Source: Candidatus Yanofskybacteria bacterium | GTDB taxonomy: Bacteria > Patescibacteriota > Minisyncoccia > 2-02-FULL-40-12 > GWA2-44-9 | Assembly (NCBI GenBank): GCA_020847715.1 | Contig: JADLBM010000014.1 | Coordinates: 14,420 to 78,419 of the forward strand | DNA length: 64,000 nucleotides | Direction of reading: 5' to 3' | In this document: piece after piece, positions 2,538 to 64,000 of the stretch | Layout of the letters: each line of letters starts with the position of its first letter | Numbering within the stretch: position 1 is the stretch's first letter | Translations under genes and position numbers: made by a program | The notes under the pieces: generated by a model | Seen by the model: the letters and a program-made list of their open reading frames with translations, nothing else | Databases searched by the model: none | What the model was told of the DNA's origin: nothing

Positions 2538-2710
2538 ACAGAACACCCAGATGAGCGTTCTGTTGTTATGTGGGGACCTAGCGGGTATCGATCCCGCGAC
2601 CGCGCTTCCACAGAGCGCTGTGATACCATTTCACCATAGGTCCCATATCAACGAAGCAGCTTGCAGGACGGGAGGAATTATACCAGAATTCCACCGACTA
2701 CGCAATTTCC

Positions 2711-3292
2711 ATGCCGGTCATTACCATCGTTATTTCTGAGATTGCGGCGGTTCTCACCCGCTTTGCGGGGCACACCTGGTACGACGCTGTTTCGTACGGT
2801 CTTGTCGTTCCGGTGCTCGCGTTCGTGCCGAGCGCTATCCATCGACAGGCACCGCAGCTTTCGCCACGATGGCGAACAATGATGGAATGGCTGGCATTCG
2901 CACTCCTCGCAATCACTGCGCCGGCGACGGTGAAGCTGCACGCGATGGGGTTTCAGTACGACCGCTTCCTGCACTTCGCCGCGGCCTTTCTATCGCTCTT
3001 TGTCGCTGTCGGTATACTCACGGCGTATCGGCCGGAATTTGTGCGGCGGGGCTCGCGGCTCGTCGGTGCTGCGGCGCTATTCATGGTTGCCGCTCTCTTC
3101 GTGTGGGAGGGACATCAGTATACCGCCGACCGTATCTTCGGGACGCGACTGTTCTATGATTCACAGCAGTCTATGAAGCGAGACTTCTGGGAAGATATTG
3201 GATTTGGTATGCTGGGCATTATCGGTGGGCTCTGCGTGCTTGTCCCTCGGCGGGGACAGCTCGCCGAACTCACGCTACCACCTATCTCATGA
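2711..3292 (+). CDS. hypothetical integral membrane protein
   Basis: 193-aa ORF with several hydrophobic helices. Confidence 0.5.
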   Translation: MPVITIVISEIAAVLTRFAGHTWYDAVSYGLVVPVLAFVPSAIHRQAPQLSPRWRTMMEWLAFALLAITAPATVKLHAMGFQYDRFLHFAAAFLSLFVAVGILTAYRPEFVRRGSRLVGAAALFMVAALFVWEGHQYTADRIFGTRLFYDSQQSMKRDFWEDIGFGMLGIIGGLCVLVPRRGQLAELTLPPIS

Positions 3293-3753
3293 GCGTTCCG
3301 GTATTCAAGACTTCACTGGTCATCGCGGTCGTGGCAGTTGCCGTTATTGCGGGGGCATGGTATTTTCTTGCCCCTCCAGATGCTACTCCAGTTGCACTGA
3401 GCGGCCGCATTGAGGGCATTACCGGATACCCGAGCGAGTTCAATCCGGAACAAACGGTATGCGCTCAGTCTGTGACCGATGCCGCGCTTGTCCGTTGTGT
3501 GGACGCGCCGGAGCAGGAGGGTTCGGTTGCGCCTACATTTAGCATCAAAGTTCCGGCGGGGCGATACACGGTCTATGCCATCTTGAAGGATCCAGCCGAC
3601 CTTGGGCTTACCGAGCAGAAAAAAGCGTACTGGAGCGCATTCGTCACCTGCGGATTCCTTGCGTCATGCGCCGACCACTCTCCGCTTGAAGTTATTGTGA
3701 GTTCGGGTGCTACCGTGACCGGCATTCAGCCGCACGACTGGTATACCAACTAG
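3289..3753 (+). CDS. hypothetical exported/membrane-anchored protein
   Basis: 154-aa ORF with an N-terminal hydrophobic helix. Its ATGA start overlaps the upstream gene's stop. Confidence 0.5.
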   Translation: MSVPVFKTSLVIAVVAVAVIAGAWYFLAPPDATPVALSGRIEGITGYPSEFNPEQTVCAQSVTDAALVRCVDAPEQEGSVAPTFSIKVPAGRYTVYAILKDPADLGLTEQKKAYWSAFVTCGFLASCADHSPLEVIVSSGATVTGIQPHDWYTN

Positions 3754-3756
3754 ACT

Positions 3757-3888
3757 ATGTTCAAATCTCTTTCCGACGACGAGAAAAAATTCGTGTGGTT
3801 CTGGATTTTCGTTTTCAGCTCGGCAGTCGGCTTTTGGGTCGTCTTTGTTCACTGGGCATGGCAGCTTGCCCGAGCATCTCTGGCATAA
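3757..3888 (+). CDS. possible small hydrophobic peptide (43 aa, MFKSLSDDEKKFVWFWIFVFSSAVGFWVVFVHWAWQLARASLA)
   Basis: Short ORF read by eye. Ends just before a strong bidirectional terminator. No clear SD. Confidence 0.25.
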   Translation: MFKSLSDDEKKFVWFWIFVFSSAVGFWVVFVHWAWQLARASLA

Positions 3889-3892
3889 AAAG

Positions 3893-3925
3893 ACCCCCGC
3901 ATCGGTTCGTTGATGCGGGGGAGCG
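3893..3925. terminator. bidirectional terminator hairpin (cccccgcatc…gatgcggggg)
   Basis: 10-bp perfect stem between convergent genes, with A-run and T-run flanks. Confidence 0.6.
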
Positions 3926-3928
3926 GGA

Positions 3929-4327
3929 CTAGGCCTCGGGGAAGAGCGAGTGATGCACGGAGTGCATGTTCGGATTTCCGTGCTGCTCCGCCTCTTCCTG
4001 ACACGGTCGGCACCGGCCGGCCAGCAGGTTCGCTGCGAGGCGCTTCCACGGGATGGCCTTCCGGCAATCAAGGCAGACGCCGTACGTTCCGGCCGCGAGA
4101 CGCGTGAGCGCGATGCATGCGGCGCGGTGCCGCTGCTGCGCCACACTGATCTCCAGCGCGGTCACGGTCGAGTTGACCTCGTGGTCGACGCTCTCGACGG
4201 AGTCGCCGACCGTGCGATTGACCACCTGCCCAGCCAGCCCATTGCGGGTCGACCGGAACAGTGCGGCGGACTCGTCTCGGATGGCCTCCAGCCTCTTTCT
4301 GATGGTGGCCTGACTCAAGTGCGACAT
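3929..4327 (-). CDS. DksA/TraR-family C4 zinc-finger protein
   Basis: C-terminal CLDCRKAIPWKRL…GRCRPCQ matches the DksA/TraR C4 zinc finger. Start re-set to MSHLSQ. Confidence 0.7.
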   Translation of the reverse strand: MSHLSQATIRKRLEAIRDESAALFRSTRNGLAGQVVNRTVGDSVESVDHEVNSTVTALEISVAQQRHRAACIALTRLAAGTYGVCLDCRKAIPWKRLAANLLAGRCRPCQEEAEQHGNPNMHSVHHSLFPEA

Positions 4328-4423
4328 GCGCACCTCCTCGAGGATTACAATAACATATTTAGCGTAATTGGTCAATATCTGGCGTCCTTCAAATTCCCGC
4401 CGTTTTCGCTATACTACCTCCAC

Positions 4424-6184
4424 ATGACGCATCAAGAGCTCCGTGAACGGTATCTCGCATTCTTCCGCTCGAAAGGGCACGCGGTTATTCCGTCCGCACC
4501 CGTGGTGCCACTGAATGATCCAACCGTGCTGTTCACGACCGCGGGGATGCACCCTCTGGTTCCGTACCTGCTGGGAGAGCCTCATCCAGCGGGCACGCGT
4601 ATCGCCGATGTCCAGAAGTGCATCCGCACGGGCGACATCGACGATGTTGGCGACGACACGCACCTCACATTCTTCGAGATGCTGGGGAACTGGTCTTTCG
4701 GGGACTACTTCAAGCAGGAGGCTATCTCGTGGAGCTTCGAGTTTCTTACATCCTCGGAGTGGCTCGGTATTCCGCTGGAGCGACTCGCGTTCACCTGCTT
4801 CGTCGGCGATGAGCATGCTCCAAAAGATGAAGAAGCCGCCGGCATCTGGCGCTCGCTTGGTGTTCCGGAGGAGCGTATCGCGTTCCTCGGCCGCGATGAT
4901 AACTGGTGGGGACCCGCCGGCACGACCGGTCCCTGTGGCCCCGACACCGAGATGTTCTACTGGATCGACAACGCGACTCCCGCACCGGAGCGCTTCAATC
5001 CGTCCGACAAGCGTTGGGTCGAGATTTGGAATGATGTGTTCATGCAGTATCGGAAGACTGAATCCGGTTCCTACGAGAAGCTCGCGAAACCGAATGTCGA
5101 CACCGGCATGGGGCTTGAGCGCACACTTACCGTGCTCACCGGCAAGCGCTCGGTGTACGAAACGGAGCTCTTCGTGCCGCTCCTTGCCGCGCTCCGCGAG
5201 CAGGCGACACTCGAACACGAGCACCGTGAGAAGTTTCTACGCATCCAAGCCGACCACCTGCGCGCCGCCGCGTTCATGATGACCGATGGCGTCGAACCAA
5301 CGAACAAAGACCGTGGGTATGTACTTCGCCGCCTCCTGCGCCGGAGCATGGTGTACGCGCGCCAGCTGGGCATGCACGAGTACTGGTGGCGCCCGATGAT
5401 GGACGCGCTTCGTGGTGTGCTCGGGGGCGTATACCCGGAGCTGGTCGCCAACGAGGAAGTCATTGACCGTGTCATCACTGCGGAGGACAAGAAATTTAGC
5501 ACAACGCTCGACAAAGGCCTCCGCGAGTTCGGGAAGCTTGAAGTTATCGATGGAGAGGCCGCATTCAATCTGTATCAGACCTATGGATTCCCGTGGGAGC
5601 TCACCTACGAGCTCGCCCATGCAAGAGGATTGAGCCCCGATCGCGGCGCGTTCGAACTTGCGTTCACAAAGCACAAAGATCTCTCCCGTACCGCATCAGC
5701 CGGCACCTTCAAGGGCGGTCTCGCGGACCATTCCGAGGTCGTCGTCCGCTACCACACCGCAACACACCTGATGCATCAGGCGCTGCGTACGGTGCTGGGC
5801 GACCATGTTATTCAAAAGGGGAGCAACATCAACGCCGAGCGCACACGGTTCGATTTCTCGCACCCGCAGAAGGTTACACCGGAAGAATTGCACCGCGTGG
5901 AGGAGCTCGTGAACGGGTGGATTCAGCGCGACCTACCCGTCACGCGCGAGATGATGTCGCAGGAGCGGGCGCGCGAGCTTGGCGCTATCGGCGCGTTCGG
6001 CGAGAAGTACGGGGACACGGTTTCTGTCTATACCGTCGAAGACCCCGCAACGCACGAGGTGGTCAGCCGTGAGTTCTGCGGCGGTCCCCATGTGGAGCAC
6101 ACGGGTGTCATCGGCCATTTCCGTATCCTGAAAGAGGAGGCCGTCTCCGCCGGCATCCGCCGCATCAAGGCGGTGCTGGAGTAG
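4424..6184 (+). CDS. alaS: alanyl-tRNA synthetase, short form (~586 aa: catalytic + tRNA-binding + editing domains, no C-Ala domain)
   Basis: N-terminal region matches the AlaS catalytic core. The C-terminal part carries the HxxxH…CGGxH editing-domain motif (HTATHLMH…FCGGPH). Start re-set to MTHQELRERY at 4424. Confidence 0.9.
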   Translation: MTHQELRERYLAFFRSKGHAVIPSAPVVPLNDPTVLFTTAGMHPLVPYLLGEPHPAGTRIADVQKCIRTGDIDDVGDDTHLTFFEMLGNWSFGDYFKQEAISWSFEFLTSSEWLGIPLERLAFTCFVGDEHAPKDEEAAGIWRSLGVPEERIAFLGRDDNWWGPAGTTGPCGPDTEMFYWIDNATPAPERFNPSDKRWVEIWNDVFMQYRKTESGSYEKLAKPNVDTGMGLERTLTVLTGKRSVYETELFVPLLAALREQATLEHEHREKFLRIQADHLRAAAFMMTDGVEPTNKDRGYVLRRLLRRSMVYARQLGMHEYWWRPMMDALRGVLGGVYPELVANEEVIDRVITAEDKKFSTTLDKGLREFGKLEVIDGEAAFNLYQTYGFPWELTYELAHARGLSPDRGAFELAFTKHKDLSRTASAGTFKGGLADHSEVVVRYHTATHLMHQALRTVLGDHVIQKGSNINAERTRFDFSHPQKVTPEELHRVEELVNGWIQRDLPVTREMMSQERARELGAIGAFGEKYGDTVSVYTVEDPATHEVVSREFCGGPHVEHTGVIGHFRILKEEAVSAGIRRIKAVLE

Positions 6185-11412: not shown

Positions 11413-11492
11413 GCCCCTGGAAGGGTCAGTTGCTGTACCAAAGCCGAGCGGACAGCGATGGCGGCGTTACGCACTCTGACCCGAGTAGGGGC
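11413..11492 (+). repeat. copy 1 of a conserved ~60-nt structured element (core …TCAGTTGCTGTACCAAAGCCGAGCGGACAGCGA…TTACGCACTCTGAC…), enclosed by the stem gcccct/aggggc
   Basis: Near-identical to 58061..58145. Two nested internal stems (GUCAG/CUGAC, GCUGU/ACAGC) plus a distinct but complementary outer stem. Confidence 0.6.
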
Positions 11493-20002: not shown

Positions 20003-20015
20003 CCCAGCGCCACGA

Positions 20016-20044
20016 CCGAGGTTTACCCTCGGTCTTTTCTTTTC
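20016..20044 (+). terminator. terminator (ccgaggtttaccctcgg + tcttttcttttc); repeat family also at 21009..21035 and 22127..22156
   Basis: Hairpin plus T-run. Three near-identical copies, each ending a cassette. Confidence 0.6.
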
Positions 20045-21003: not shown

Positions 21004-21107
21004 TCTGACCGAGGTTTACCCTCGGTCTTTTCTTATCTGAAATAGACTCACGTGGAGCCTATTTACAAAATATATAAATGTAGTATTATAAAGACAAGGA
21101 GGTGCGC

Positions 21108-22119: not shown

Positions 22120-22206
22120 CTCTCGACCGAGGCTCACCCCTCGGTCTTTTCTTTTCTAAAATATGTGGTATTATGTGTCTGTTCGTTTCCAATGAAAGGG
22201 GAACCA

Positions 22207-38336: not shown

Positions 38337-39581
38337 CTAGAGGTAATCTGCGGGATTGAGCGTTCCTTCGAAGTAGTTGAAGTAGAGATCATCTCCCTTG
38401 AGGTAGGTGAAGAACTCTTTATAGAGCGAGAGGTGAAGGTGAGAACCGGTCACCTTTCCGGTGGTACCTTCGTAGCCGATGATGTCGCCGGTCTTTACCT
38501 GCGAGCCGACCTTCAAGAATGAGAGCGAGCTCATGTGGCCATACACGCTCACCATATTATTGGTGTGCTGGATGGCAACCCAGTTCCCCCATCCGCTATT
38601 CGTTCCATTCGCGACAATACGGCCATCTCCGATAGTCTTAATCGGCGTTCCATAACCCGATGCGATGTCGATGCCGTTATGCGGTGCTCCCCCGTAGGCG
38701 CCACGCTTTGCGTACTTGGTCATGCCGTACCCCTGTGTCAGATGGTAATCATCCTCCGGCCAACTAAAAAGCTTCGTCCCGCGGGGAGGAACACGATCCG
38801 CCTTGATGTGGACGATGTAGAGTCCACCGGAAACAACCTTCAATTCAAGTTCGCGGAGCTCTTTGAAGAACGCTGCCTTCTGCTTCTCAATCTCAGTTAG
38901 CTGTTTCTGGTAGGCCGCCTCTTGCCCTTTGGTCACCTGCAACACGCGATCGCGCTCTCCCTTGACACCGGCGAGCTGCTGACGACGCTGGAGCGCCTGC
39001 GCATTAAGATCCTCCAGTTGGTGCTGTTTCCCCTCGAGCTCGGCCTGATCCCGCTCAAGCGCAACTTTCGCATCTTTCAGGTCGGCAATCATGCCAAGGA
39101 GCCGGTCTTGAATGGTCGCGAGATCGTGGAACTGCTGAAGGAAACTCGAAAGGTTCGCGTACTTAAAGAGGCTTGCCGCAAGATCCTCGTGATCGCGCTG
39201 TTCAAGGAATAGGACCATGCGCCCGATGGTCTCCCGCTTGCGACTCATATCGTCGCGCTTGTCGATAATCTGCGCTTCAATCTGACCAATCTCAGTCTTC
39301 GTGAGATCAATCTTCTTTCCGGTCGCAGCAATCTGCGCTTCAATCTGACCAATCTGTCCCTTGAGAACGGCGATCTCTTTCTTTAGCGTATCCGCCTTTG
39401 CTCGCTCAGTGGCGATACTCGAACGGAATTGTGCCGCTTGCTGCTCGAGTTTTTCAATTTGCCCCTGAAGCTCTTGGATACGCGCCTCCTCAGGCGTGAG
39501 CGCGAACGCACGGGAGGGGAAGAGCGCGCACAAAACAAGGAGAGCTCCGGCAAGAACGATTCCGCGATGAAATGTGTTCAT
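38337..39581 (-). CDS. M23 family metallopeptidase with an N-terminal coiled-coil (EnvC-like)
   Basis: Signal peptide, ~200-aa coiled-coil, then C-terminal HNGIDIA…GHMS…GSHLHLS M23 motifs. Confidence 0.85.
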   Translation of the reverse strand: MNTFHRGIVLAGALLVLCALFPSRAFALTPEEARIQELQGQIEKLEQQAAQFRSSIATERAKADTLKKEIAVLKGQIGQIEAQIAATGKKIDLTKTEIGQIEAQIIDKRDDMSRKRETIGRMVLFLEQRDHEDLAASLFKYANLSSFLQQFHDLATIQDRLLGMIADLKDAKVALERDQAELEGKQHQLEDLNAQALQRRQQLAGVKGERDRVLQVTKGQEAAYQKQLTEIEKQKAAFFKELRELELKVVSGGLYIVHIKADRVPPRGTKLFSWPEDDYHLTQGYGMTKYAKRGAYGGAPHNGIDIASGYGTPIKTIGDGRIVANGTNSGWGNWVAIQHTNNMVSVYGHMSSLSFLKVGSQVKTGDIIGYEGTTGKVTGSHLHLSLYKEFFTYLKGDDLYFNYFEGTLNPADYL

Positions 39582-55933: not shown

Positions 55934-56057
55934 GGAAGCGGAGAAGCGCGGAGCGGAAACCGACTAGAAAGCAAGCACTGGTTTTCAACTCGCCATCAAC
56001 ACTTCGGTTGCCCCCGCTCTGTAATTTTCGGATAATGCGGGAGCATCCAATCGAGCC

Positions 56058-57425
56058 ATGGCGAACGTACTCCCCGACACCACTCCCCCGCAAAACCTCG
56101 ACGCCGAGCGTTCGCTCTTGGGGTCGCTCCTGTCAGACCGCGAGGCCATCAACAAGGTCATCGATATGGTCAACGCGGAGCACTTCTACCAGCGGAATCA
56201 CCAGCTCATCTGGACCGCACTCTCGAGTCTCTGGGAACACCATGAGAACATCGACATCCTCTCCGTCTCCACGAAGCTCGGCGACATGGGGCACCTTGAT
56301 GCCATCGGCGGAGTCGCCGCGCTCACCGCGCTTGCGAGCGAAATTCCGACCGCTGCGCATGTACAGACCTACGCGCGCATCGTCCAACGGAAGAAATCCC
56401 TCCGCGACCTGCTCGACGTCTCGCATCGCATTAAAGCGCTCGCGTACCGCGAAGACGACGACATCGACGCCGTGCTCGGCGAGGCGGAACAGCAGCTCTT
56501 CTCGGTCACCCAGAAAACCCTCAGTAATAAGTTTGATGCCCTCGCCGGAGAACTCGACCGTGCCATGGAGCGCATCCAGACCCAAGACGACGGTCAGCTC
56601 CGCGGCGTACCCACAAAGCACACAAAGCTGGATCAGACACTCGGCGGATTCCAGAAGTCCGACCTTATCATCCTCGCCGCCCGTCCATCGGTCGGTAAAA
56701 CCGCCTTCGCAATTGACATCGCCCGCCGTGTTGCCGAGAGTCAAACACCCGTCGGCATCTTCAGCTTGGAAATGAGCGTCGACCAAGTCGTCGACCGTCT
56801 CATCGCCGCAAAGGCGCGCGCTTCGTTGTGGCGTCTCCGCACGGGAAAGCTCTCCCATGAAGGCGAGCACAACGACTTCCTCAAGATTACCAACGCTATC
56901 TCTGAGCTCCGCGATATGCCCGTCTTCATCGACGATACGCCAGGCCTGAATGTGATGCAGATGCGCGCCATGGCGCGGCGCCTGAAAGCCGAGCACGGCC
57001 TCGGCATGCTCATCGTGGACTACTTGCAGCTCATGAGTGCCCGCCGCAACTACGACTCCCCCGTCCAGCAGGTCACGGAAATCAGCCGCGGCCTCAAAGC
57101 GCTGGCGAAGGAGCTGCAGATTCCTGTCATCGCCCTCTCTCAGCTCTCGCGCGCCGTCGAGAACCGCGAAGGCAACCGGCCTCGCCTGTCCGACCTCCGC
57201 GACTCCGGCTCCATCGAGCAAGACGCCGACGTGGTCATGTTCATCCACCGCGACGACAAGATCAACTTCCAACGCGCCCAGGAGCAGGGCCGGCAAAACC
57301 TCGCCCAGCTCGTCATCGCCAAACACCGCAACGGCCCCACCGGCGAGATTGATTTCCACATCAACCCTGAAAACCTCGAGTTCTCCGAGGTCGACACCGT
57401 GCACACCGACTCTGACTTCCTGTAA
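56058..57425 (+). CDS. dnaB: replicative DNA helicase DnaB
   Basis: DnaB N-domain plus RecA-like domain (ILAARPSVGKT, LIVDYLQLM). Confidence 0.9.
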   Translation: MANVLPDTTPPQNLDAERSLLGSLLSDREAINKVIDMVNAEHFYQRNHQLIWTALSSLWEHHENIDILSVSTKLGDMGHLDAIGGVAALTALASEIPTAAHVQTYARIVQRKKSLRDLLDVSHRIKALAYREDDDIDAVLGEAEQQLFSVTQKTLSNKFDALAGELDRAMERIQTQDDGQLRGVPTKHTKLDQTLGGFQKSDLIILAARPSVGKTAFAIDIARRVAESQTPVGIFSLEMSVDQVVDRLIAAKARASLWRLRTGKLSHEGEHNDFLKITNAISELRDMPVFIDDTPGLNVMQMRAMARRLKAEHGLGMLIVDYLQLMSARRNYDSPVQQVTEISRGLKALAKELQIPVIALSQLSRAVENREGNRPRLSDLRDSGSIEQDADVVMFIHRDDKINFQRAQEQGRQNLAQLVIAKHRNGPTGEIDFHINPENLEFSEVDTVHTDSDFL

Positions 57426-57430
57426 TCCTC

Positions 57431-58030
57431 ATGGATCCCTCCTTTGAACGTATCGCAAAACTCCTTCAGACACTCCCCGGCGTCGGCCCGCGCGCGTCGG
57501 TGCGGCTCGTGCTCGCGCTCCTCGACCGCCCACAGGCACAGCTCGACGAGCTGGGGAGCGCCATTAGCCAGCTCAAAGAGCGCGTTCGCCAGTGCACCGA
57601 GTGCTTCAATGTGAGCGAGGACGAGCTGTGTGGTATCTGCCGCGACCGGCGACGGGACGCCCGCTCGCTACTGGTCGTCGAGAAAATCACCGATCTGCAA
57701 TCCGTCGAGCGCGCCGGACTCTGGCGCGGCCTCTACCATGTCCTCGGCGGCGCCATTTCGCCGGTGGATGGCGTAGGACCGGAACACCTCCGCATTCGCG
57801 AGCTCACCGAACGCGTCGACCGCTTTGTCCAGCAAGCAGGGGCCGTGGAAATCGTCCTCGCCACGAACCCGACCTCCTCGGGAGAAATGACCGCACTCTA
57901 CATTCGCGACCTCTTCGCACGCGTCCCGGGCATCAAGGTCACGCGCCTTGCCCGCGGACTTGCGACCGGCACGCATCTCGAATACGCCGACGAAATCACG
58001 CTGAAGCATGCGCTCGACAGTCGGAAGTAG
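57431..58030 (+). CDS. recR: recombination protein RecR
   Basis: LPGVGPRAS HhH, CTECFNVSEDELCGIC zinc finger, Toprim domain. Confidence 0.9.
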   Translation: MDPSFERIAKLLQTLPGVGPRASVRLVLALLDRPQAQLDELGSAISQLKERVRQCTECFNVSEDELCGICRDRRRDARSLLVVEKITDLQSVERAGLWRGLYHVLGGAISPVDGVGPEHLRIRELTERVDRFVQQAGAVEIVLATNPTSSGEMTALYIRDLFARVPGIKVTRLARGLATGTHLEYADEITLKHALDSRK

Positions 58031-58060
58031 CCTCAGCGCAGGCAACCAAGAAGCAGATGA

Positions 58061-58145
58061 CCGGGCATGAAGGGAGTCAGTTGCTGTACCAAAGCCGAGC
58101 GGACAGCGACGGCGACGTTACGCACTCTGACGAGCGCATGCCCGG
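58061..58145 (+). repeat. copy 2 of the conserved ~60-nt structured element, enclosed by a perfect 9-bp outer stem ccgggcatg/catgcccgg
   Basis: Core identical to 11421..11480 apart from a 2-nt indel and 2 substitutions. The outer stem differs from copy 1 but remains complementary. Confidence 0.6.
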
Positions 58146-58189
58146 CCATCTGCGCACTCGGATCAATACATGCAGATAGTGCAACATAA

Positions 58190-58213
58190 CAAAACGCCCC
58201 TGTCGGGGCGCTG
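58190..58213 (-). terminator. terminator of rplU on the minus strand (gcgcccc-gaca-ggggcg + TTTTGTT)
   Basis: Hairpin plus T-run when read on the minus strand. Confidence 0.55.
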
Positions 58214-58215
58214 TG

Positions 58216-58533
58216 TTATTTTGCGGAGATCTTCGTGATTTTCACTTTCGTGAACGGCTGACGATGACCCTTCTTCTTGTGGTAGCGGGTCTTTGCTTTG
58301 TAGCGGAAGACCATCTTCTTCTCGCCTTTGCCCTCGGCAACCACCGTCGCGGCGACCGTTGCGCCCTCGATGAACGGCTGACCGATGACGGCCTTCTTCT
58401 CGGTCGCGATCAGAAGCACCTCGTCGAAGACGACTTTGTCGCCCTCGTGTTCGAGCTTCTCAATCTCAAGCTCAAGTCCTTCGTGGACGATGTACTGCTT
58501 CCCGCCGGTTTTGATGACAGCAAACGTAGTCAT
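58216..58533 (-). CDS. rplU: 50S ribosomal protein L21
   Basis: MTTFAVIKTGGKQYIVHEG…, canonical L21. Confidence 0.95.
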   Translation of the reverse strand: MTTFAVIKTGGKQYIVHEGLELEIEKLEHEGDKVVFDEVLLIATEKKAVIGQPFIEGATVAATVVAEGKGEKKMVFRYKAKTRYHKKKGHRQPFTKVKITKISAK

Positions 58534-58608
58534 GATGAGATGAAAAATGCCTGAATATCCTAGCAGAAACGCAAAATACTGTCAATTCCCGCCCCATCGG
58601 AGAAGATA

Positions 58609-58640
58609 TTGACCTCCATTGTATATGTGGTATAATGGGT
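58609..58640 (+). promoter_or_regulatory. strong sigma70-like promoter (TTGACC-16-TGgTATAAT, extended -10)
   Basis: Near-consensus -35, a TG-extended -10, ~40 nt before the SD/ATG at 58679. Confidence 0.5.
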
Positions 58641-58678
58641 CATCGCAGTTTGAAAATCAACACAAAACCGGAGGGTTC

Positions 58679-59452
58679 ATGAGGCAGGACTTGGCGCACA
58701 CGTTGAAGGACGTCGCCGGTCGGCGGTACACGCCGCACAAGAGCGGGTGGACCCCTGACCCCGCGCTGCTGGGCGAGGTTGACCTCGAACTCCTCGAGGG
58801 CGTGGACGAGTCCCCCCGTCGCATCCCCATGCGGCCGCGCATGCGCTCCCACGAGGCGCGCCGCAGCGGTTTCCGCTTCGGAGTGCTGCAGCGTGGGCTC
58901 GCCGCCCAGGTGGGCCGCCCGTGGAACGAGGTGTTCAGCGAACTCCTCGAAAAGCTCCCCGGTGACCGCGTCTGGGACATCCGGGAGGCCATCGGTTGGG
59001 CGGTGCAGACCAACTGCCGCCTCGCCAGCGACGGGTCCGTGTGCTGGACGAGGGACGGCCACCAGTGGTGGCCTGTGCGCGGCATGTACGTGCACCCCGA
59101 GACCGGCATCCTCTGCGAGGCCACGCCTCCCGCGAAGCCGGTCCGACTGCCGAAGGTGGTCAACCCGCTCACGGGCACGATGATGGAGGGCGCGTGGGCC
59201 CGCGACAACTACCGTCCCATCGACAAGAGCCGCTTCGCCCAGCGTGAGAACGGCATCTGGTACATCTACCAGGTCGCCGTGCACGCCCCCACGGACACGT
59301 ACGCGACCCGCTGGGACTGGCGGAACGACCGCGAGCAGGTCATCACCTACGGAGAGGTGCCCGCCGTGGACCGGCGGTACATCGCCTCCAAGAAGCAGGC
59401 CTGCCGCCGCCGACTCCGCGTCCTCGGGGTTCGCAACGACCCCGCGGCCTAG
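58679..59452 (+). CDS. hypothetical protein (257 aa, Arg/Trp-rich)
   Basis: SD CCGGAGGG before the ATG. Own promoter and terminator (59461..59495). No recognisable motif. Confidence 0.5.
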   Translation: MRQDLAHTLKDVAGRRYTPHKSGWTPDPALLGEVDLELLEGVDESPRRIPMRPRMRSHEARRSGFRFGVLQRGLAAQVGRPWNEVFSELLEKLPGDRVWDIREAIGWAVQTNCRLASDGSVCWTRDGHQWWPVRGMYVHPETGILCEATPPAKPVRLPKVVNPLTGTMMEGAWARDNYRPIDKSRFAQRENGIWYIYQVAVHAPTDTYATRWDWRNDREQVITYGEVPAVDRRYIASKKQACRRRLRVLGVRNDPAA

Positions 59453-59460
59453 AGCTTCCC

Positions 59461-59495
59461 GCCCCCGCTCCGACACTTGGAGCGGGGGCCTTTCA
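59461..59495 (+). terminator. terminator (gcccccgctcc-gacactt-ggagcgggggc + ctttc)
   Basis: 11-bp perfect stem. Confidence 0.55.
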
Positions 59496-59563
59496 ATTGA
59501 CGCACGCCGCTTAGCTGTGCCAGAATATGCCGCTACGAGAGCTCATTCATAAAGGAGACAGCA

Positions 59564-60520
59564 GTGAACATGGAATATCGCCACGAGCGTCTGGGAGCCA
59601 TTCAGGGCGTCCTCTGGCGAACGATGGCGCTCAACCTGACCGTTGCCGTCCTCAAGACCGTCGGCGGACTGGTAACGGGCATCACGGCTATCTGGGCTGA
59701 CGGCCTACACAGCATTGGCGACTCCCTGAGCAACATCGTCGGCTTGCTCGGCGTTCGCCTCGCGCGGCGCGAGCCAGACGAGGAGTACCCGTACGGATAC
59801 GACAAGTTCGAATCCATCGCGACCCTCGTTATCACGGGCATCATTTTCGTGACACTCTTCGAGGTCATTCGAGCAGGCATTGCGCGTCTGCGTGAGCCCA
59901 GCGATGCAATCGTGAACGGAACAACCATCGCCCTGCTCGTGTCGTCGATGACCATCAACCTCTTCGTGGTCTGGTACGAGGGACGGGCTGGGAAGCGCCT
60001 GAAGTCGGAACTCCTGATTGCGGACTCCAACGAAACAAAATCCGATGTCTTCGTGACGCTGGGCATCCTCTCGGGCGTGAGCACCATGGCGATATTCCCC
60101 GCCCTTGCATGGCTCGACGGTGTTCTGACCCTCTTGGTTGCGTGTGCCATCGGACACGTCATCTACGAAATCGTTACCAGCACCGCACGCGTTCTGGGTG
60201 ACGCGCAAGTCGTAGACCCACGCCGAGTGCACGCCATCGCCACGGCAGTCCCCGGCGTACAGTTTTGCCACGCCATTCGGAGCCGTGGCCGCGAGACGGG
60301 GTTCTACCTCGACCTCCACATCGGCGTTGAGCCGACCATCACCATCGAGGAGGCGCACGACGTTGTGTGCCATAACGTGAAACGCGCCCTCTACGACACG
60401 TTCCCCGAGCTCAAATCGGCGCACATCCACATCGAGCCCAACAATGAGAAGGGACGCACCCGCGAGGGCAGCGTCTTCGCCACTCGTGATCCGTACGGAC
60501 ACAACGGCAACGGCATCTAG
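59564..60520 (+). CDS. cation diffusion facilitator (CDF) family metal efflux transporter
   Basis: Six TM helices with the HSIGDSLSN motif and a cytoplasmic C-terminal domain. Confidence 0.85.
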   Translation: MNMEYRHERLGAIQGVLWRTMALNLTVAVLKTVGGLVTGITAIWADGLHSIGDSLSNIVGLLGVRLARREPDEEYPYGYDKFESIATLVITGIIFVTLFEVIRAGIARLREPSDAIVNGTTIALLVSSMTINLFVVWYEGRAGKRLKSELLIADSNETKSDVFVTLGILSGVSTMAIFPALAWLDGVLTLLVACAIGHVIYEIVTSTARVLGDAQVVDPRRVHAIATAVPGVQFCHAIRSRGRETGFYLDLHIGVEPTITIEEAHDVVCHNVKRALYDTFPELKSAHIHIEPNNEKGRTREGSVFATRDPYGHNGNGI

Positions 60521-60530
60521 CGTTCCCCAC

Positions 60531-60558
60531 AGCGCGCCCATCCAAAAGGATGGGCGCT
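60531..60558 (+). terminator. terminator (gcgcccatcc-aaaa-ggatgggcgc + T5)
   Basis: 10-bp perfect stem plus T-run after the CDF gene. Confidence 0.6.
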
Positions 60559-60564
60559 TTTTGT

Positions 60565-60651
60565 TTGGCGCTCTCGCGTCCCCTTCAAATCCAACAGGGT
60601 CACGATACCAAAACACCGCCCGTGCGGGTGGTGTTTTGGTATTTGTAGCCC
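60565..60651 (+). repeat. left direct repeat (R1) of the islet: TTGGCGCTCTCGCGTcCCCTTCAAATCC, then a 15-bp hairpin, then tATTTGTAGCCC
   Basis: Matches 63128..63227 (R2) in order and sequence: 27/28 identity in block 1, analogous hairpin, identical 11-nt tail shared with the tRNA 3' end. Confidence 0.55.
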
Positions 60652-60867
60652 TGGCGATGCGTTATCAAAACCCCTCATGAAGCTGGTCCAGGATCTCACA
60701 GCACTCGCCCAGAGGAGGCACTATACCCTGTAAAGCCTCCGAAATCAAGCATTAAACCCACTCCCACCCGTTTGTAAAACCTGTCTCCTCTGATAGAAAT
60801 CGCAGGTGTGCTAGCCCTGTCCATACAGGGCTTTCCTTATGGAATGGAAAGAGTACTATGTAGTGGT

Positions 60868-61122
60868 ATGTCCAACCCAGAGACAAACCGCGATGAGCGC
60901 GAAATACTAGCCAGCATCGATGCGAAGCTCACTGCGCTTTTGTCTGTAGCGCTCCGCTGTAATTCCGACGTAGTAGATAGGGTGAGCGTAGCAAGCGCAA
61001 AGAATGTTGGCTTCCTTACCTCTTGTGGGCTTTCCATTGAGGAGGTGGCAGCCGTGCTCGGAACTACCAAAGATAGCGCACGCAAGATACGTGATAACAA
61101 TAAAAAGAATGGCAAAAAGTAA
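60868..61122 (+). CDS. small HTH protein (sigma-70 region-4/LuxR-like), paralog 1
   Basis: C-terminal GLSIEEVAAVLGTTKDSARKIR plus a Lys-rich tail (…NGKK). Start re-set to MSNPETN. Confidence 0.45.
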   Translation: MSNPETNRDEREILASIDAKLTALLSVALRCNSDVVDRVSVASAKNVGFLTSCGLSIEEVAAVLGTTKDSARKIRDNNKKNGKK

Positions 61123-61306
61123 GACCGTGTCCAATCCCGAGACACTGATTGAAAAAACGCTAGAGGAAATAAAGCGCCTGCTTGTGTTGCAGCTTTCCAG
61201 CGCCAATGTCTCCAACGATGACATCGGTGCTGCGTTGGGCGTTTCTTACAAAACCGTTGAACGCATGCTCCCCAAAAAGGGTCGTGCGAAGAAGCGCGAT
61301 TAACCA
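61112..61306 (+). CDS. small HTH protein, paralog 2 (64 aa)
   Basis: NVSNDDIGAALGVSYKTVERML HTH. Its ATG is embedded in the NGKK codons of paralog 1 (ATGGCAAAAAG). Below the ORF-track cutoff in its own frame; read by eye. Confidence 0.4.
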
Positions 61307-61308
61307 TT

Positions 61309-61563
61309 ATGGCAAAGCCCCTAACACTCGAGGACATCGACATGCGCTTGCGCCAGCTGGCATTCCTGCTCGCGCAGCAGACGCTCGTGTCTTCGCTCAA
61401 AGAGGCAAAGCAGCGCGAGAAAATCGCATTTCTTAGCTGTGCAGGCCTTAGTAATGAAGACATAGCCGTGCTGCTTGGCACTACACCTCGCACTGTAACC
61501 GTCGAGTTGTCCGTACTACGGACAGCCGCCAAGAAGCCGAATGGCAAAAAGGCTAAATCCTAA
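61309..61563 (+). CDS. small HTH protein, paralog 3 (84 aa)
   Basis: GLSNEDIAVLLGTTPRTVTVELSVLR HTH plus an …NGKKAKS tail. Similar length and layout to paralog 1. Confidence 0.5.
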   Translation: MAKPLTLEDIDMRLRQLAFLLAQQTLVSSLKEAKQREKIAFLSCAGLSNEDIAVLLGTTPRTVTVELSVLRTAAKKPNGKKAKS

Positions 61564-62266
61564 TATTGTCGAGAAACTTGTAGAGCACACGGGCTACACC
61601 GAGCAAAGCGTGCGTAACGCTATCACCGCAATACGTAAAGAACACGGGTTTACGGCTACCACGCTGAATGGCGCCGCCCATGAATATGCGGGGCGGAAAG
61701 GTACTACCATTTGGCGCATGCTGGACGACGAGGATAGGGCCAGCATACCCAATATCGCCCCTGCAGTGCAGACCGTTGTGGTCAGTAAGAAAAGTGGGAA
61801 AGCTATAACCAATGTCAAGCCTAGCGTCGTTGTACTTACCTATGCAACAACCGACTCTTTTGGCCAGAAGCATGTAGAGGAAGCAAACCGTGCTTATAAC
61901 GCACAGTGCTACACCGCCGCATTCATTTTGTGTCGCAAGATTTTTGAGAATCTCATCATAAACGACCTTTTACTAAAACAGTTCCCTGATAAAAATGCCG
62001 CCAACCGAGCGCTGTACTACAACGAGGCCCAATCTCGTTTCAAGGACTTCTCCGAGATAGTAGATAATCTGTATAAGCAGCGCCTATCCTTTCCGGTGGC
62101 ATGCAGAAAACCTATCGAGCGACTACAAACCAAGCTGGGAGTGTTCATGGGCGGTGCTAATGACTATACGCATTCGTGGTATCACATCTGCGATAAAGCG
62201 GAATTCGATAAGGCTGACGTGCAACAAATAGCCGATCTGATTAGCACAATAGCTGCCGGCATATAA
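61541..62266 (+). CDS. hypothetical protein (241 aa); C-terminal half possibly DUF4145/HEPN-like
   Basis: Its start is nested in the NGKK codons of paralog 3 and its N-terminus resembles paralog 2 (MAK…NPxxxEK). The C-terminal AFILCRKIFENLI…GGANDYTHSW loosely resembles DUF4145. Confidence 0.45.
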   Translation: MAKRLNPNIVEKLVEHTGYTEQSVRNAITAIRKEHGFTATTLNGAAHEYAGRKGTTIWRMLDDEDRASIPNIAPAVQTVVVSKKSGKAITNVKPSVVVLTYATTDSFGQKHVEEANRAYNAQCYTAAFILCRKIFENLIINDLLLKQFPDKNAANRALYYNEAQSRFKDFSEIVDNLYKQRLSFPVACRKPIERLQTKLGVFMGGANDYTHSWYHICDKAEFDKADVQQIADLISTIAAGI

Positions 62267-62429
62267 GTTCAGCGTGAGCCGCACTCAGGGTGCGCTTCAA
62301 GGCACAATGCTGTTTACAATACCCTACTCGTAGGGCATAATTAGGATACAATTCATCGCCTAAACCTGCAGAGACGGCTCGGCGGGCATGGCGCAAAAGG
62401 ACTCCACGCGGCAACCCTAATATACGGAC

Positions 62430-62972
62430 ATGAAAGAAGGTGCGTACAAAGCAGCAATAAGCATCCTGGCGCTAGGCCTAGCCGCCTCAATCTATGTGGG
62501 GATTCAAGCCTCGCGTATTGAAAATCAGATCTCCCTCCCAAGCTTCGGCTATCACGACCTAAGAGAGTATGGATACGATGTTATCTCGGTAAGTGGAACG
62601 CTCGCTGGAGTGGAGGGCGGGAACATTGCCAACAGACTCAACACGAACGAGTTTACCTGCAACCGAGCAACTGGAACATGTCGCCTCGCTCAGGCCGAGA
62701 TAGGCTCTGGAGGCTTTCTATGGGTATATGCTGAGACTTTTGATATAGCATCCTGGGATTCAAACTTTGTTGTATTCAAAACGCAGCCAGGCAGCCTCGC
62801 CTGCGCCGCGTGGACATATCGCATCGACCGCATTAAAAAGGAGCTCATCGGTATCCGCGAGAAAGCAAACGGCTACGATAGCGATCGCTGTGCAGGCGTC
62901 GGACTCGAAAAATTTTCCGTCAAAATCATTGATGGGTTCGACGCCTCTGAGAAGATTCGGAAATCGAAGTAG
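62430..62972 (+). CDS. hypothetical secreted/membrane-anchored protein (180 aa)
   Basis: N-terminal hydrophobic anchor. Four Cys. No recognisable family. Confidence 0.45.
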   Translation: MKEGAYKAAISILALGLAASIYVGIQASRIENQISLPSFGYHDLREYGYDVISVSGTLAGVEGGNIANRLNTNEFTCNRATGTCRLAQAEIGSGGFLWVYAETFDIASWDSNFVVFKTQPGSLACAAWTYRIDRIKKELIGIREKANGYDSDRCAGVGLEKFSVKIIDGFDASEKIRKSK

Positions 62973-62980
62973 CGCCTCAT

Positions 62981-63003
62981 TGCCCCGACGGGGTTCCTGC
63001 AGG
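62981..63003 (-). other. tRNA-derived fragment (CCCCGACGGG+GTTCCTGC = tRNA 3' acceptor and anticodon-stem segments, T-loop deleted)
   Basis: An 11-mer and an 8-mer identical to segments of the tRNA at 63221..63259, in the same orientation, ~220 bp from the tRNA. Confidence 0.4.
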
Positions 63004-63127
63004 CATGAAGCAGTTCATGCCCTCGGATACCCTTCAAATCCATGCGACGGGATTTCTCTTCCTCCGCCACTCTCGGGTCGCTTCACGACAACCTCCGTGG
63101 CTTCCCCAGAGCCCGGGTCTCTCGAAC

Positions 63128-63227
63128 GCCAAGCAGTTGGCGCTCTCGCGTACCCTTCAAATCCCGAGGGGTTCAATATACGAAAAGACATCCACATGTA
63201 TGGATGTCTTTTCGTATTTGTAGCCCC
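63128..63227 (+). repeat. right direct repeat (R2): TTGGCGCTCTCGCGTaCCCTTCAAATCC, a 14-bp hairpin (cgaaaagacatcca/tggatgtcttttcg), then tATTTGTAGCCCC running into the tRNA 3' end
   Basis: See R1. The hairpin also serves as the tRNA's terminator when read on the minus strand. Confidence 0.55.
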
Positions 63228-63295
63228 GACGGGATTTGAACCCGTGTTCCTGCGCTGAGAACGCAATGTCCTAGACCAGGCTAGACGACAGGGCC
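63221..63295 (-). tRNA. tRNA, read as tRNA-Glu (anticodon CUC); 75 nt, no encoded CCA
   Basis: Cloverleaf folded by hand on the minus strand. Acceptor GGCCCUG/CGGGGCU (two G-U). U8, A14. D-stem GUCU/GGAC with an 11-nt D-loop containing GG. Anticodon stem UUGCG/CGCAG, loop UUCUCAG (U33, A37). 4-nt variable loop. T-arm ACGGG-UUCAAAU-CCCGU. Discriminator A. Confidence 0.6.
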
Positions 63296-63349
63296 AAGCG
63301 GTGTATCATTATAACCCGTCTGGACAGGTTTTGCAAATAGGAGGGTTCC

Positions 63350-63796
63350 GTGAAGGTCATCTTCCTGGACATTGATGGCGTGATGAACCGACGAGACACC
63401 GCGCCCCGCACGCGCTCTGCCGGATTCGACCCCGTTCCCATCAGCTGTCTCAACGAGATACTGGCGGCGACCGGTGCGAGCATCGTGGTCACGGGCGCTC
63501 TCGGGCGCGCGATGTACCTCGACGACCTCAAGCTCTTTTTCCAGCATTCCGGCATCTCGGGAGACGCAATCATCGGCGTGACCGAATTCGGAGGCGGAAC
63601 TCGCGGCGAAGACATCACCGCATGGCTCGACGAGCATCCGGACCATCGTGAGTACTACATCGTCATCGATGACGCGGGAATCGAAGATATCAGACCGCAC
63701 GGAAGCCGCTTCATCAAGACCGACTGGAACACGGGACTCACTCCGGCCTGCATCCCGCACGCCGTTCGCCTCCTCAACCGCAAGCGCCACCTCTAA
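63350..63796 (+). CDS. HAD-like hydrolase (polynucleotide 3'-phosphatase/HAD-family)
   Basis: N-terminal VIFLDIDGVMN (DxDGV motif I). GTG start with SD AGGAGGG. Confidence 0.5.
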   Translation: MKVIFLDIDGVMNRRDTAPRTRSAGFDPVPISCLNEILAATGASIVVTGALGRAMYLDDLKLFFQHSGISGDAIIGVTEFGGGTRGEDITAWLDEHPDHREYYIVIDDAGIEDIRPHGSRFIKTDWNTGLTPACIPHAVRLLNRKRHL

Positions 63797-63833
63797 GGTG
63801 GCGCCGTTTTTCGCTCAAACCCCTTCTACTCTT

Positions 63834-64000
63834 CTACTTGGAGAGCCAGCGAGCCGATTGCCGAACCAGCAGCTGCGGTGCCCGTTGTGGTTCTGCCATG
63901 ATCTCGCGCACGATGCGTTCCATGCGGACGCCTTGGCTCCCCTTCACAAGAATGATGTCGCCACTCCGAATGAGCTTCTGCACTTCCGGCGCCGCAGTTG
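63834..64000 (-). CDS. partial (3' end) Mur-ligase family protein, MurF-like C-terminus
   Basis: Minus-strand frame ends …IRSGDIILVKGSQGVRMERIVREIMAEP…, resembling the Mur ligase C-terminal domain. Gene continues beyond the window end. Confidence 0.5.
   Translation of the reverse strand, partial: TAAPEVQKLIRSGDIILVKGSQGVRMERIVREIMAEPQRAPQLLVRQSARWLSK

Follow-up and report, generated by a model that had tools for sequence, protein, structure and literature searches.

A worn tandem stack of small gene-less modules at the 3′ end of a tRNA-Glu gene in a Candidatus Yanofskybacteria bacterium

Adjacent to the 3′ end of an intact tRNA-Glu(CTC) gene in Candidatus Yanofskybacteria, a CPR bacterium, lies a worn tandem stack of at least three copies of a gene-less module of ~165-180 bp, here called E. 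The anatomy of this block, together with the empty sites, junctions, deletions and strain polymorphism observed at the same locus in relatives, probably came about when copies of a small element without genes were inserted serially into the tRNA gene at its 3′ end and then decayed. Scars at a tRNA hotspot are of an ordinary and familiar kind. The E module itself is unusually small, structured and conserved.

The block occupies positions 60564-63219 of the window, by which we mean the whole 64-kb stretch of DNA that was analysed, and it is bounded by the terminator of a cation-efflux (CDF) protein gene and by tRNA-Glu(CTC) (Table 1). Judged by the homologous loci, this interval is inserted DNA, because a homologue of the CDF terminator hairpin directly abuts the 3′ end of tRNA-Glu in two relatives. 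Specifically, in L041, whose CDF protein is 71% identical to that of the window, the stop codon and the terminator hairpin are followed directly by tRNA-Glu(CTC). In L034, another Yanofskybacteria genome, the same hairpin lies against tRNA-Glu, and the CDF gene, the islet and the repeated motif are all missing. Both of these empty sites carry a single tRNA. All relatives compared are short metagenomic contigs. Collinear alignments and comparison with L043 give the order along the block as E3, islet, E2 and E1, with E1 nearest the tRNA. The layout of the spacer does not reflect mis-assembly, because two further sequencing runs, assembled independently in Logan, give exactly the window sequence: L036 matches throughout 62900-63223, and L037 from 62900 to the end of its contig at 63109.

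Table 1. Features of the inserted block and its borders, in window coordinates. A slash marks a junction.
Feature	Position	Strand	Remarks
Cation-efflux (CDF) protein gene	59564-60520		Host gene beside the inserted block
CDF terminator hairpin	60534-60557	+	Last host sequence ahead of the insert; terminator-like site call
E3, right end only	60565-60651	+	Collinear with unit C
Motif copy A (earlier R1)	60565-60592	+	Truncated right end of E3, putatively the oldest module; left arm of small hairpin missing
E3 right-end remainder	60593-60651	+	Spacer, terminator-type hairpin A (60606-60641), TTTGTAGCCC
tRNA fragment GTAGCCC	60645-60651
Islet, ~2.3 kb	60649-62981	+	Inside tRNA-end copy between E3 and E2; ~50% GC versus ~60% around it
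Variable cargo of islet	60649 to ~62340		Three small ORFs (at least two helix-turn-helix), then 241-aa protein
Conserved 180-aa ORF of islet	62430-62972
tRNA 3′-end fragment GCCCCGACGGG	62982-62992	+	Equals tRNA 63223-63233; exact-match scan
GTTCCTGC	62993-63000		Directly after GCCCCGACGGG; equals tRNA 63246-63253; exact-match scan
E2 remnant	62993-63044	+	GTTCCTGC body piece, hairpin, motif B, ATG; E2 of L043 is collinear with E1
E2 small hairpin	63002-63021		GGCATGAA-GCAG-TTCATGCC
Motif copy B	63022-63041		Followed by ATG
Displaced tRNA 3′-end fragment CGACGGGATTT	63045-63055	+	Equals tRNA 63227-63237; putatively pushed out by E1 insertion; junction GGGATTT/CTCTTCC in T-loop
E1, complete	63056-63219	+
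E1 body with stem-loops	63056-63126
E1 small hairpin, GCAG loop	63127-63142
Motif copy C (earlier R2)	63137-63164
E1 inverted copy, tRNA T-loop to 3′ end	63156-63178
E1 bidirectional terminator hairpin	63179-63216
tRNA-Glu(CTC), intact	63220-63295	-	3′ end faces lower coordinates
Promoter-like site upstream of tRNA-Glu	63336-63308

Module E is built of ~110 nt of GC-rich stem-loops that start with CT..TCC.CCG, a small hairpin with a GCAG loop, the repeated motif, a spacer, a bidirectional terminator hairpin and the last 18 nt of the tRNA, in that order. Intact copies are directly preceded by a tRNA 3′-end piece that stops in the T-loop at GGGATTT/. This junction is found in the window, in L035 and in L043, and the equivalent position is used in a tRNA-Val gene that carries a similar insertion, V1. 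The sequences at hand comprise three of E1, two of E2 and one of V1. In the window, E3 retains its right end, where TTTGTAGCCC is the start of a tRNA 3′-end copy that is cut off by the islet. This copy is split after GTAG and resumes at 62982 as GCCCCGACGGG, its right part. The palindromic right end of E2 is deleted in both the window and L043, whereas a 62-nt loss at its left junction is confined to the window strain.

The simplest form of the insertion is provided by L035, a sister species with 86% identity in the neighbouring HAD protein. Its locus carries one insertion of 180 nt, in which a perfect 58-nt direct repeat surrounds 122 nt that match window positions 63056-63167. The repeat consists of the terminator hairpin and the last 18 nt of the tRNA, ending at GGGATTT/ in the T-loop, and its tRNA part corresponds to window positions 63220-63237. 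The junction, with the full 18-nt fragment, is the same as that at 63055/63056 in the window, where the outer repeat of E1 is shortened to 11 nt. L035 keeps both att repeats, and recombination genes are absent. A retro-element reading, in which the 18-nt tRNA end is a primer-binding site, was rejected because the repeat continues into trailer and terminator sequences that are missing from the mature tRNA.

A less deleted array with different cargo is present in L043, a sister strain whose host genes are 98.5% identical to those of the window. The two sequences are the same up to TTTGTAG (60648), diverge, and match again from 62348. L043 then reads GCCCCGACGGGATTT/CTGCTCC...(62 extra nt)...CCGGG/GTTCCTGCG where the window reads CCCCGACGGG/GTTCCTGC, with 58 further bases following GCCCCGACGGGATTT. 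Its E2 is a full paralogue of E1 that is collinear with E1 over the whole length and has its own GGGATTT/ junction. Because CCCCGACGGG and GTTCCTGC are separated by 62 additional bases in L043, the window strain, by this comparison, carries a 62-nt deletion between two CGGG repeats, directly after 62992, that joins CCCCGACGGG to GTTCCTGC.

This deletion bears on the initial annotation of the locus, which described positions 62981-63003 as a copy of the adjacent tRNA from which the T-loop had been deleted. Indeed, GCCCCGACGGG is a true tRNA fragment, and the 12 tRNA bases ATTTGAACCCGT are missing between it and GTTCCTGC. However, GTTCCTGC belongs to the body of E2, aligns with the E1 body sequence GTCTCT-C, and lies 62 nt away from the fragment in L043, which rules it out as a second piece of the tRNA. 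A model in which crossover took place in the anticodon stem, with exchange at GTTCCTGC/, is ruled out by the same strain. Read against L043, the apparent tRNA copy lacking a T-loop is a coincidence in which a genuine fragment stands beside an 8-mer of the element. Fragments of tRNA genes that arise from integration are a known annotation problem (PMC9897764), and this locus is a case in which a fortuitous match of an 8-mer looks like a tRNA scar.

The strings listed in the initial annotation were all recovered by an exact-match scan, which also yielded a fragment that had been overlooked (CGACGGGATTT). All fragments are 3′ parts in tRNA orientation, and all lie on the 3′ side of the tRNA. Matches to the tRNA of at least 11 nt in the 247-nt spacer appear in 0.7% of 20,000 shuffles, and the real spacer has two, on the tRNA strand. 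By itself, the 8-mer GTTCCTGC falls within chance expectation. At six other tRNA loci used as controls, the longest match in the 300 nt downstream is 8 nt or less, the exception being the tRNA-Val mini-insertion in L032.

The initial annotation also counted a repeated motif among the tRNA scars. The copies are present: two of ACCCTTCAAATCC are exact (63029-63041 and 63152-63164), and a third, at 60580-60592, has one mismatch. Three occurrences compare with 0.03 expected, a count reached in 0 of 100 shuffles, and the repeat can be followed over 28-34 nt (families D4 and D9). As a whole, this motif is the conserved right end of the module, and its TTCAAATCC part is no direct scar of the tRNA but lies within an inverted copy of the T-loop and 3′ end.

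Recombination between motif copies has left a trace in another strain. Two contigs from one sample, L044 and L033, lack both the array and the islet and hold a single hybrid motif. In L044, the CDF terminator runs into a motif whose left side has the copy-A SNP and whose right side continues into the copy-C spacer. L033 starts inside the hybrid motif, overlaps L044 by 21 nt, and continues through spacer and hairpin to the tRNA. Copies A and C share just 22 identical bases, which is shorter than the 31-base word that we take to have been used for these Logan assemblies, and so the hybrid was not created by assembly. Because this strain has one hybrid motif and no array, the array form and the single-motif form differ by recombination between motif copies. 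The single-motif strain may be either ancestral or a deletion product. Homologous loci thus present empty sites (L041 and L034), a clean single insertion (L035), arrays, including the less deleted one of L043, shared junctions and a hybrid motif (L044 and L033), which bears out the earlier proposal of repeated integration and deletion at one tRNA hotspot.

The islet that interrupts the array has exchangeable cargo. In place of 60649 to ~62340, L043 carries genes for 60-aa and 474-aa DUF8370/8371 proteins (reverse complement 2539-4668). A four-gene cargo module of 1.45 kb (window 60818-62262) is 74% identical to positions 9278-10722 of L038, another CPR genome, where it lies 159 nt downstream of a different tRNA-Glu(CTC) and in the opposite orientation relative to the tRNA. 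No tRNA-fragment repeat was found around the islet-like module in L038. The first small ORF of the islet has no family match, and the 241-aa protein has no Pfam or PDB sequence match. An AlphaFold model of the latter (pLDDT 85.6) weakly resembles a HEPN-like helical bundle plus a winged helix, and the protein possibly contains such a HEPN-like bundle. Scans with Pfam, PHROGs and PADLOC detected no integrase or recombinase in the ORFs of the islet, and the same scans gave a recombinase domain in 0 ORFs of the region 60564-63219, which thus lacks the integrase that Islander demands. Nor was an integrase or recombinase found among the listed ORFs of at least 50 aa in 56000-64000, where the ORFs judged to be real were scanned with Pfam, PHROGs or PADLOC or placed by synteny with L034.

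Several properties of the modules go beyond those of ordinary scars. The E1 core of the window is 95.5% identical to that of L043, as compared with 98.5% for host genes. It is 91-94% identical to that of L035, as compared with 64% for third codon positions of a neighbouring gene and 70-76% for neighbouring hairpins (Fisher p = 7e-8 and 5e-4 for the excess). Because E1 divergence does not follow host divergence, these values suggest constraint, exchange between lineages, or both. Among the three E1 sequences, one pair of a 4-bp stem varies as A-U, G-U and G-C and another as G-C and G-U, such that pairing is kept only on the plus strand. Likewise, the small hairpins that accompany copies B and C differ at three pairs and retain pairing. 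Folding z-scores are -6.1 for the plus strand of E1, much of which comes from the terminator, and -8.1 for V1. Local alignments of the E and V bodies to direct or inverted tRNA sequence were no better than those of shuffles (p = 0.2-0.8), and we rejected the idea that these bodies are degenerate tRNA copies. In an Rfam search at E <= 10, only the tRNA was matched, apart from spurious hairpin matches far under threshold.

Each intact module also mirrors its target. Immediately to the left of the terminator is an inverted, slightly diverged copy of the tRNA that runs from the T-loop to past the 3′ end. In E1 this copy reads TTCAAATCCCG-A-GGGG at 63156-63171 and creates an imperfect palindrome of ~85 nt, in which the terminator and the final 18 nt of the tRNA together make up the right arm. 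The mirror copy is significant in E1 of the window, E1 of L035 and V1 at tRNA-Val (0 of 5000 shuffles each). Neither the empty sites nor the host-side repeat of L035 carries it. The putative exchange point, taken as the right-hand boundary of the direct repeat, is no more than ~3 nt away from where the palindrome's right arm has its outer end.

An analogue of E is found at a second tRNA. In the sister strain L032 (5858-6096), a 29-nt direct repeat flanks 181 nt at tRNA-Val(CAC) to form the mini-insertion V1. The repeat comprises 10 nt of trailer and 19 nt of tRNA-Val(CAC) up to the T-loop, and the 181-nt sequence folds strongly and has at its end a mirror copy of the 3′ end of tRNA-Val, together with a terminator. 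The insertion is missing in L034. A 96-aa ORF located just past V1 in L032 is likewise absent from L034, and the contig of L033 breaks within the tRNA-Val insertion. What is new here is the host group and a compact, conserved, target-mirroring module found at two tRNAs.

Under the serial-insertion model that we favor, strand exchange would take place in the T-loop at GGGATTT/, the module would supply a new 3′ end for the tRNA, and the old 3′ end would be pushed outward as a fragment. Repeated rounds would yield the array E3-E2-E1, with the newest member beside the tRNA. Later, E3 would have lost its left part, the 2.3-kb islet with its exchangeable cargo would have entered the tRNA-end copy between E3 and E2 as an unrelated insertion, and the palindrome of E2 would have been deleted. 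A 62-nt microhomology deletion between CGGG repeats fused CCCCGACGGG to GTTCCTGC in the window strain, and recombination between motif copies would have reduced the whole block to one hybrid motif in the other strain. We infer both this order of events and the participation of a tyrosine-type integrase encoded elsewhere.

Serial insertion has to be weighed against simpler origins of the fragments. Chance similarity in a GC-rich spacer, or an artefact of metagenome-bin assembly, is the least credible of these. An 8-mer such as GTTCCTGC and single 10-11-mers do arise by chance, and ~14 tRNA matches of at least 10 nt occur elsewhere in the 64-kb window. However, the fragments are clustered in one orientation, their junctions recur in L035 and L043, independent assemblies are identical to the window, and the motif count far exceeds its expectation. 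Hardly more plausible is the idea that the fragments are decayed remains of a former tandem array of tRNA-Glu genes, as their proximity to the tRNA and their shared orientation might suggest. Against this, the parts present are all 3′ parts that stop at one and the same T-loop position, and no 5′ parts and no second tRNA were detected by ARAGORN or by Rfam at E <= 10. In addition, the sequence between the fragments has no significant similarity to the tRNA, the empty sites hold one tRNA each, and the repeat in L035 includes the terminator, which is not expected from gene duplication.

The main rival, which we regard as unlikely, is that the E modules are small autonomous units rather than passive remnants of larger islands: either a structured RNA gene on the plus strand, or a palindromic cassette that would fold as single-stranded DNA to mimic the tRNA 3′ end and be moved by a host recombinase. 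The highly significant mirror of the T-loop-to-3′-end segment in both E1 modules and V1, the position of the putative exchange point at the outer edge of the palindrome, the cassette-like stacking of the arrays, the conservation of E1 well above the silent-site level, the preservation of plus-strand pairing in the stem and of pairing in the small hairpin, and the folding z-scores all favor such units. Against them, the covariation involves two pairs because three E1 sequences are available, the terminator supplies much of the folding energy, promoter evidence, an Rfam family and a nearby recombinase are all lacking, and the crossover of the L044 hybrid took place in the motif, which is at the palindrome's left edge and not its right one. 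A bolder version, to which we give somewhat less credence still, would make E and V1 a new class of gene-less miniature integrative cassettes of 165-210 bp. Each would have a structured body and a palindrome mirroring its own target tRNA, would insert at the T-loop as a folded single strand or through a trans-acting recombinase, would stack like integron cassettes and might express a plus-strand RNA.

Several observations count against the serial-insertion model, probable as it is. An inverted copy of the tRNA 3′ end is present in each module, is not a feature of a classical integrase attP, and is unexplained by the model. The 58-nt repeat of L035 includes a host-type terminator, which requires either that the element has resided in the lineage for long or that the exchange was homologous and not site-specific. 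Furthermore, no recombinase was found among the ORFs covered in 56000-64000, and 165-180 bp is far below the size of known decayed islands. A full-length element with E-type ends was not found in any collection searched.

These collections covered genomes, metagenomes and viruses. Among species-representative genomes, relatives of the CDF protein reach 41% identity at most, and synteny is therefore unreadable there; exact look-ups of window proteins left three without a record. Metagenome scans with the 41-nt 3′ half of the tRNA and with the motif pattern gave 0 matches each, as did viral-contig scans with the tRNA pattern. The motif gave four matches in viral contigs, of which two have 23-nt identity to copy C (IMG/VR L028 10243-10265, exact; L029 1450-1472, one mismatch). 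These were judged to be chance, as the L029 match is inside a 272-aa phage ORF (by the list of L029 ORFs) and has no flanking similarity. Viral-contig scans with two 20-mers of E1 returned 0 matches and one chance match, and BLAST against phage records matched only the tRNA, to phage tRNA-Glu genes.

Other repeats and an unusual ORF were noted elsewhere in the window. A 56-nt direct repeat with 96% identity, GTCAGTTGCTGTACCAAAGCCGAGCGGACAGCGA.GGCG.CGTTACGCACTCTGAC, occurs at 11425-11480 and 58076-58131. The RecR-L21 spacer holds the second copy, for which L034 (8414-8507) shows 91% conservation over 94 nt. A different outer inverted repeat surrounds each window copy, with pairing kept and sequence changed, and there is no Rfam match at E <= 10, making this repeat a candidate unclassified structured RNA with two copies. 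An ORF of 277 aa at 58619-59452 has no family match and a very high local GC content of 0.69-0.72 versus ~0.60 around it, and both L034 and L035 conserve it at the corresponding place. A 31-nt terminator-like hairpin, GACCGAGGTTTACCCTCGGTCTTTTCTTTTC, is present in three copies ~1 kb apart (20014-20044, 21007-21037 and 22126-22156), and a perfect 26-nt direct repeat, AATCTGCGCTTCAATCTGACCAATCT, is found at 39267-39292 and 39330-39355 with 63-nt spacing.

Mobile elements of CPR bacteria are poorly known, and this locus offers a worked example across at least four Yanofskybacteria strains or species. It documents the stacking of elements at a tRNA hotspot, the exchange of islet cargo, microhomology deletion and the putative collapse of a whole array. 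If the mini-modules are mobile units and not debris, they would rank with the smallest known site-specific integrative elements, and their target-mirroring palindrome would point to an unusual recombination mechanism.

Certain known systems share parts of this architecture. Integron attC sites and the folded hairpin attP of CTX phage have an imperfect palindrome at the end of the element with the exchange point at its edge, and they are inserted or excised by a host recombinase. The E modules are alike in their end palindrome with the putative exchange point at the edge and in their cassette-like stacking with the newest member beside the target. They differ in that the target is a tRNA T-loop rather than attI or dif, and in that one recombinant crossed at the other edge of the palindrome; an integrase was not found among the ORFs tested in 56-64 kb. 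Neisserial intergenic mosaic elements are short blocks flanked by dRS3 repeats, at which phages attach. As with the E modules, an attachment-site repeat recurs between the short non-coding blocks of an array, although the repeat, host and target are different and there is no link to a tRNA.

The islands catalogued by Islander and TIGER are closer in their target. Islander recognizes an island by a displaced 3′ tDNA fragment in tRNA orientation, places the fragment end in the T-stem or in the anticodon region, of which the former defines a T-stem class of sites, and requires an integrase (PMC4383910). As in those islands, the tRNA here is intact, direct 3′ fragments mark the ends of the inserts, several inserts share one tRNA, and relatives have empty sites; the T-loop junction corresponds to the T-stem class. 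In contrast, no member here has an integrase, the inserts measure 165-180 bp rather than kilobases, and the repeat can include the tRNA terminator. The accretion model for elements of the ICESt1 type describes CIMEs, decayed elements without integration genes that keep attL and attR and lie in tandem with later arrivals (PMC5704250). E modules similarly keep att repeats, lie in tandem where the target gene ends, and have lost segments by recombination between repeats. However, they do not look like random decay products, because three genomes share one compact architecture for them and their conservation exceeds that of silent sites; moreover, a helper element is not known, and a CPR bacterium is the host. 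The window array with its decayed, gene-less member fits the accretion model of CIMEs.
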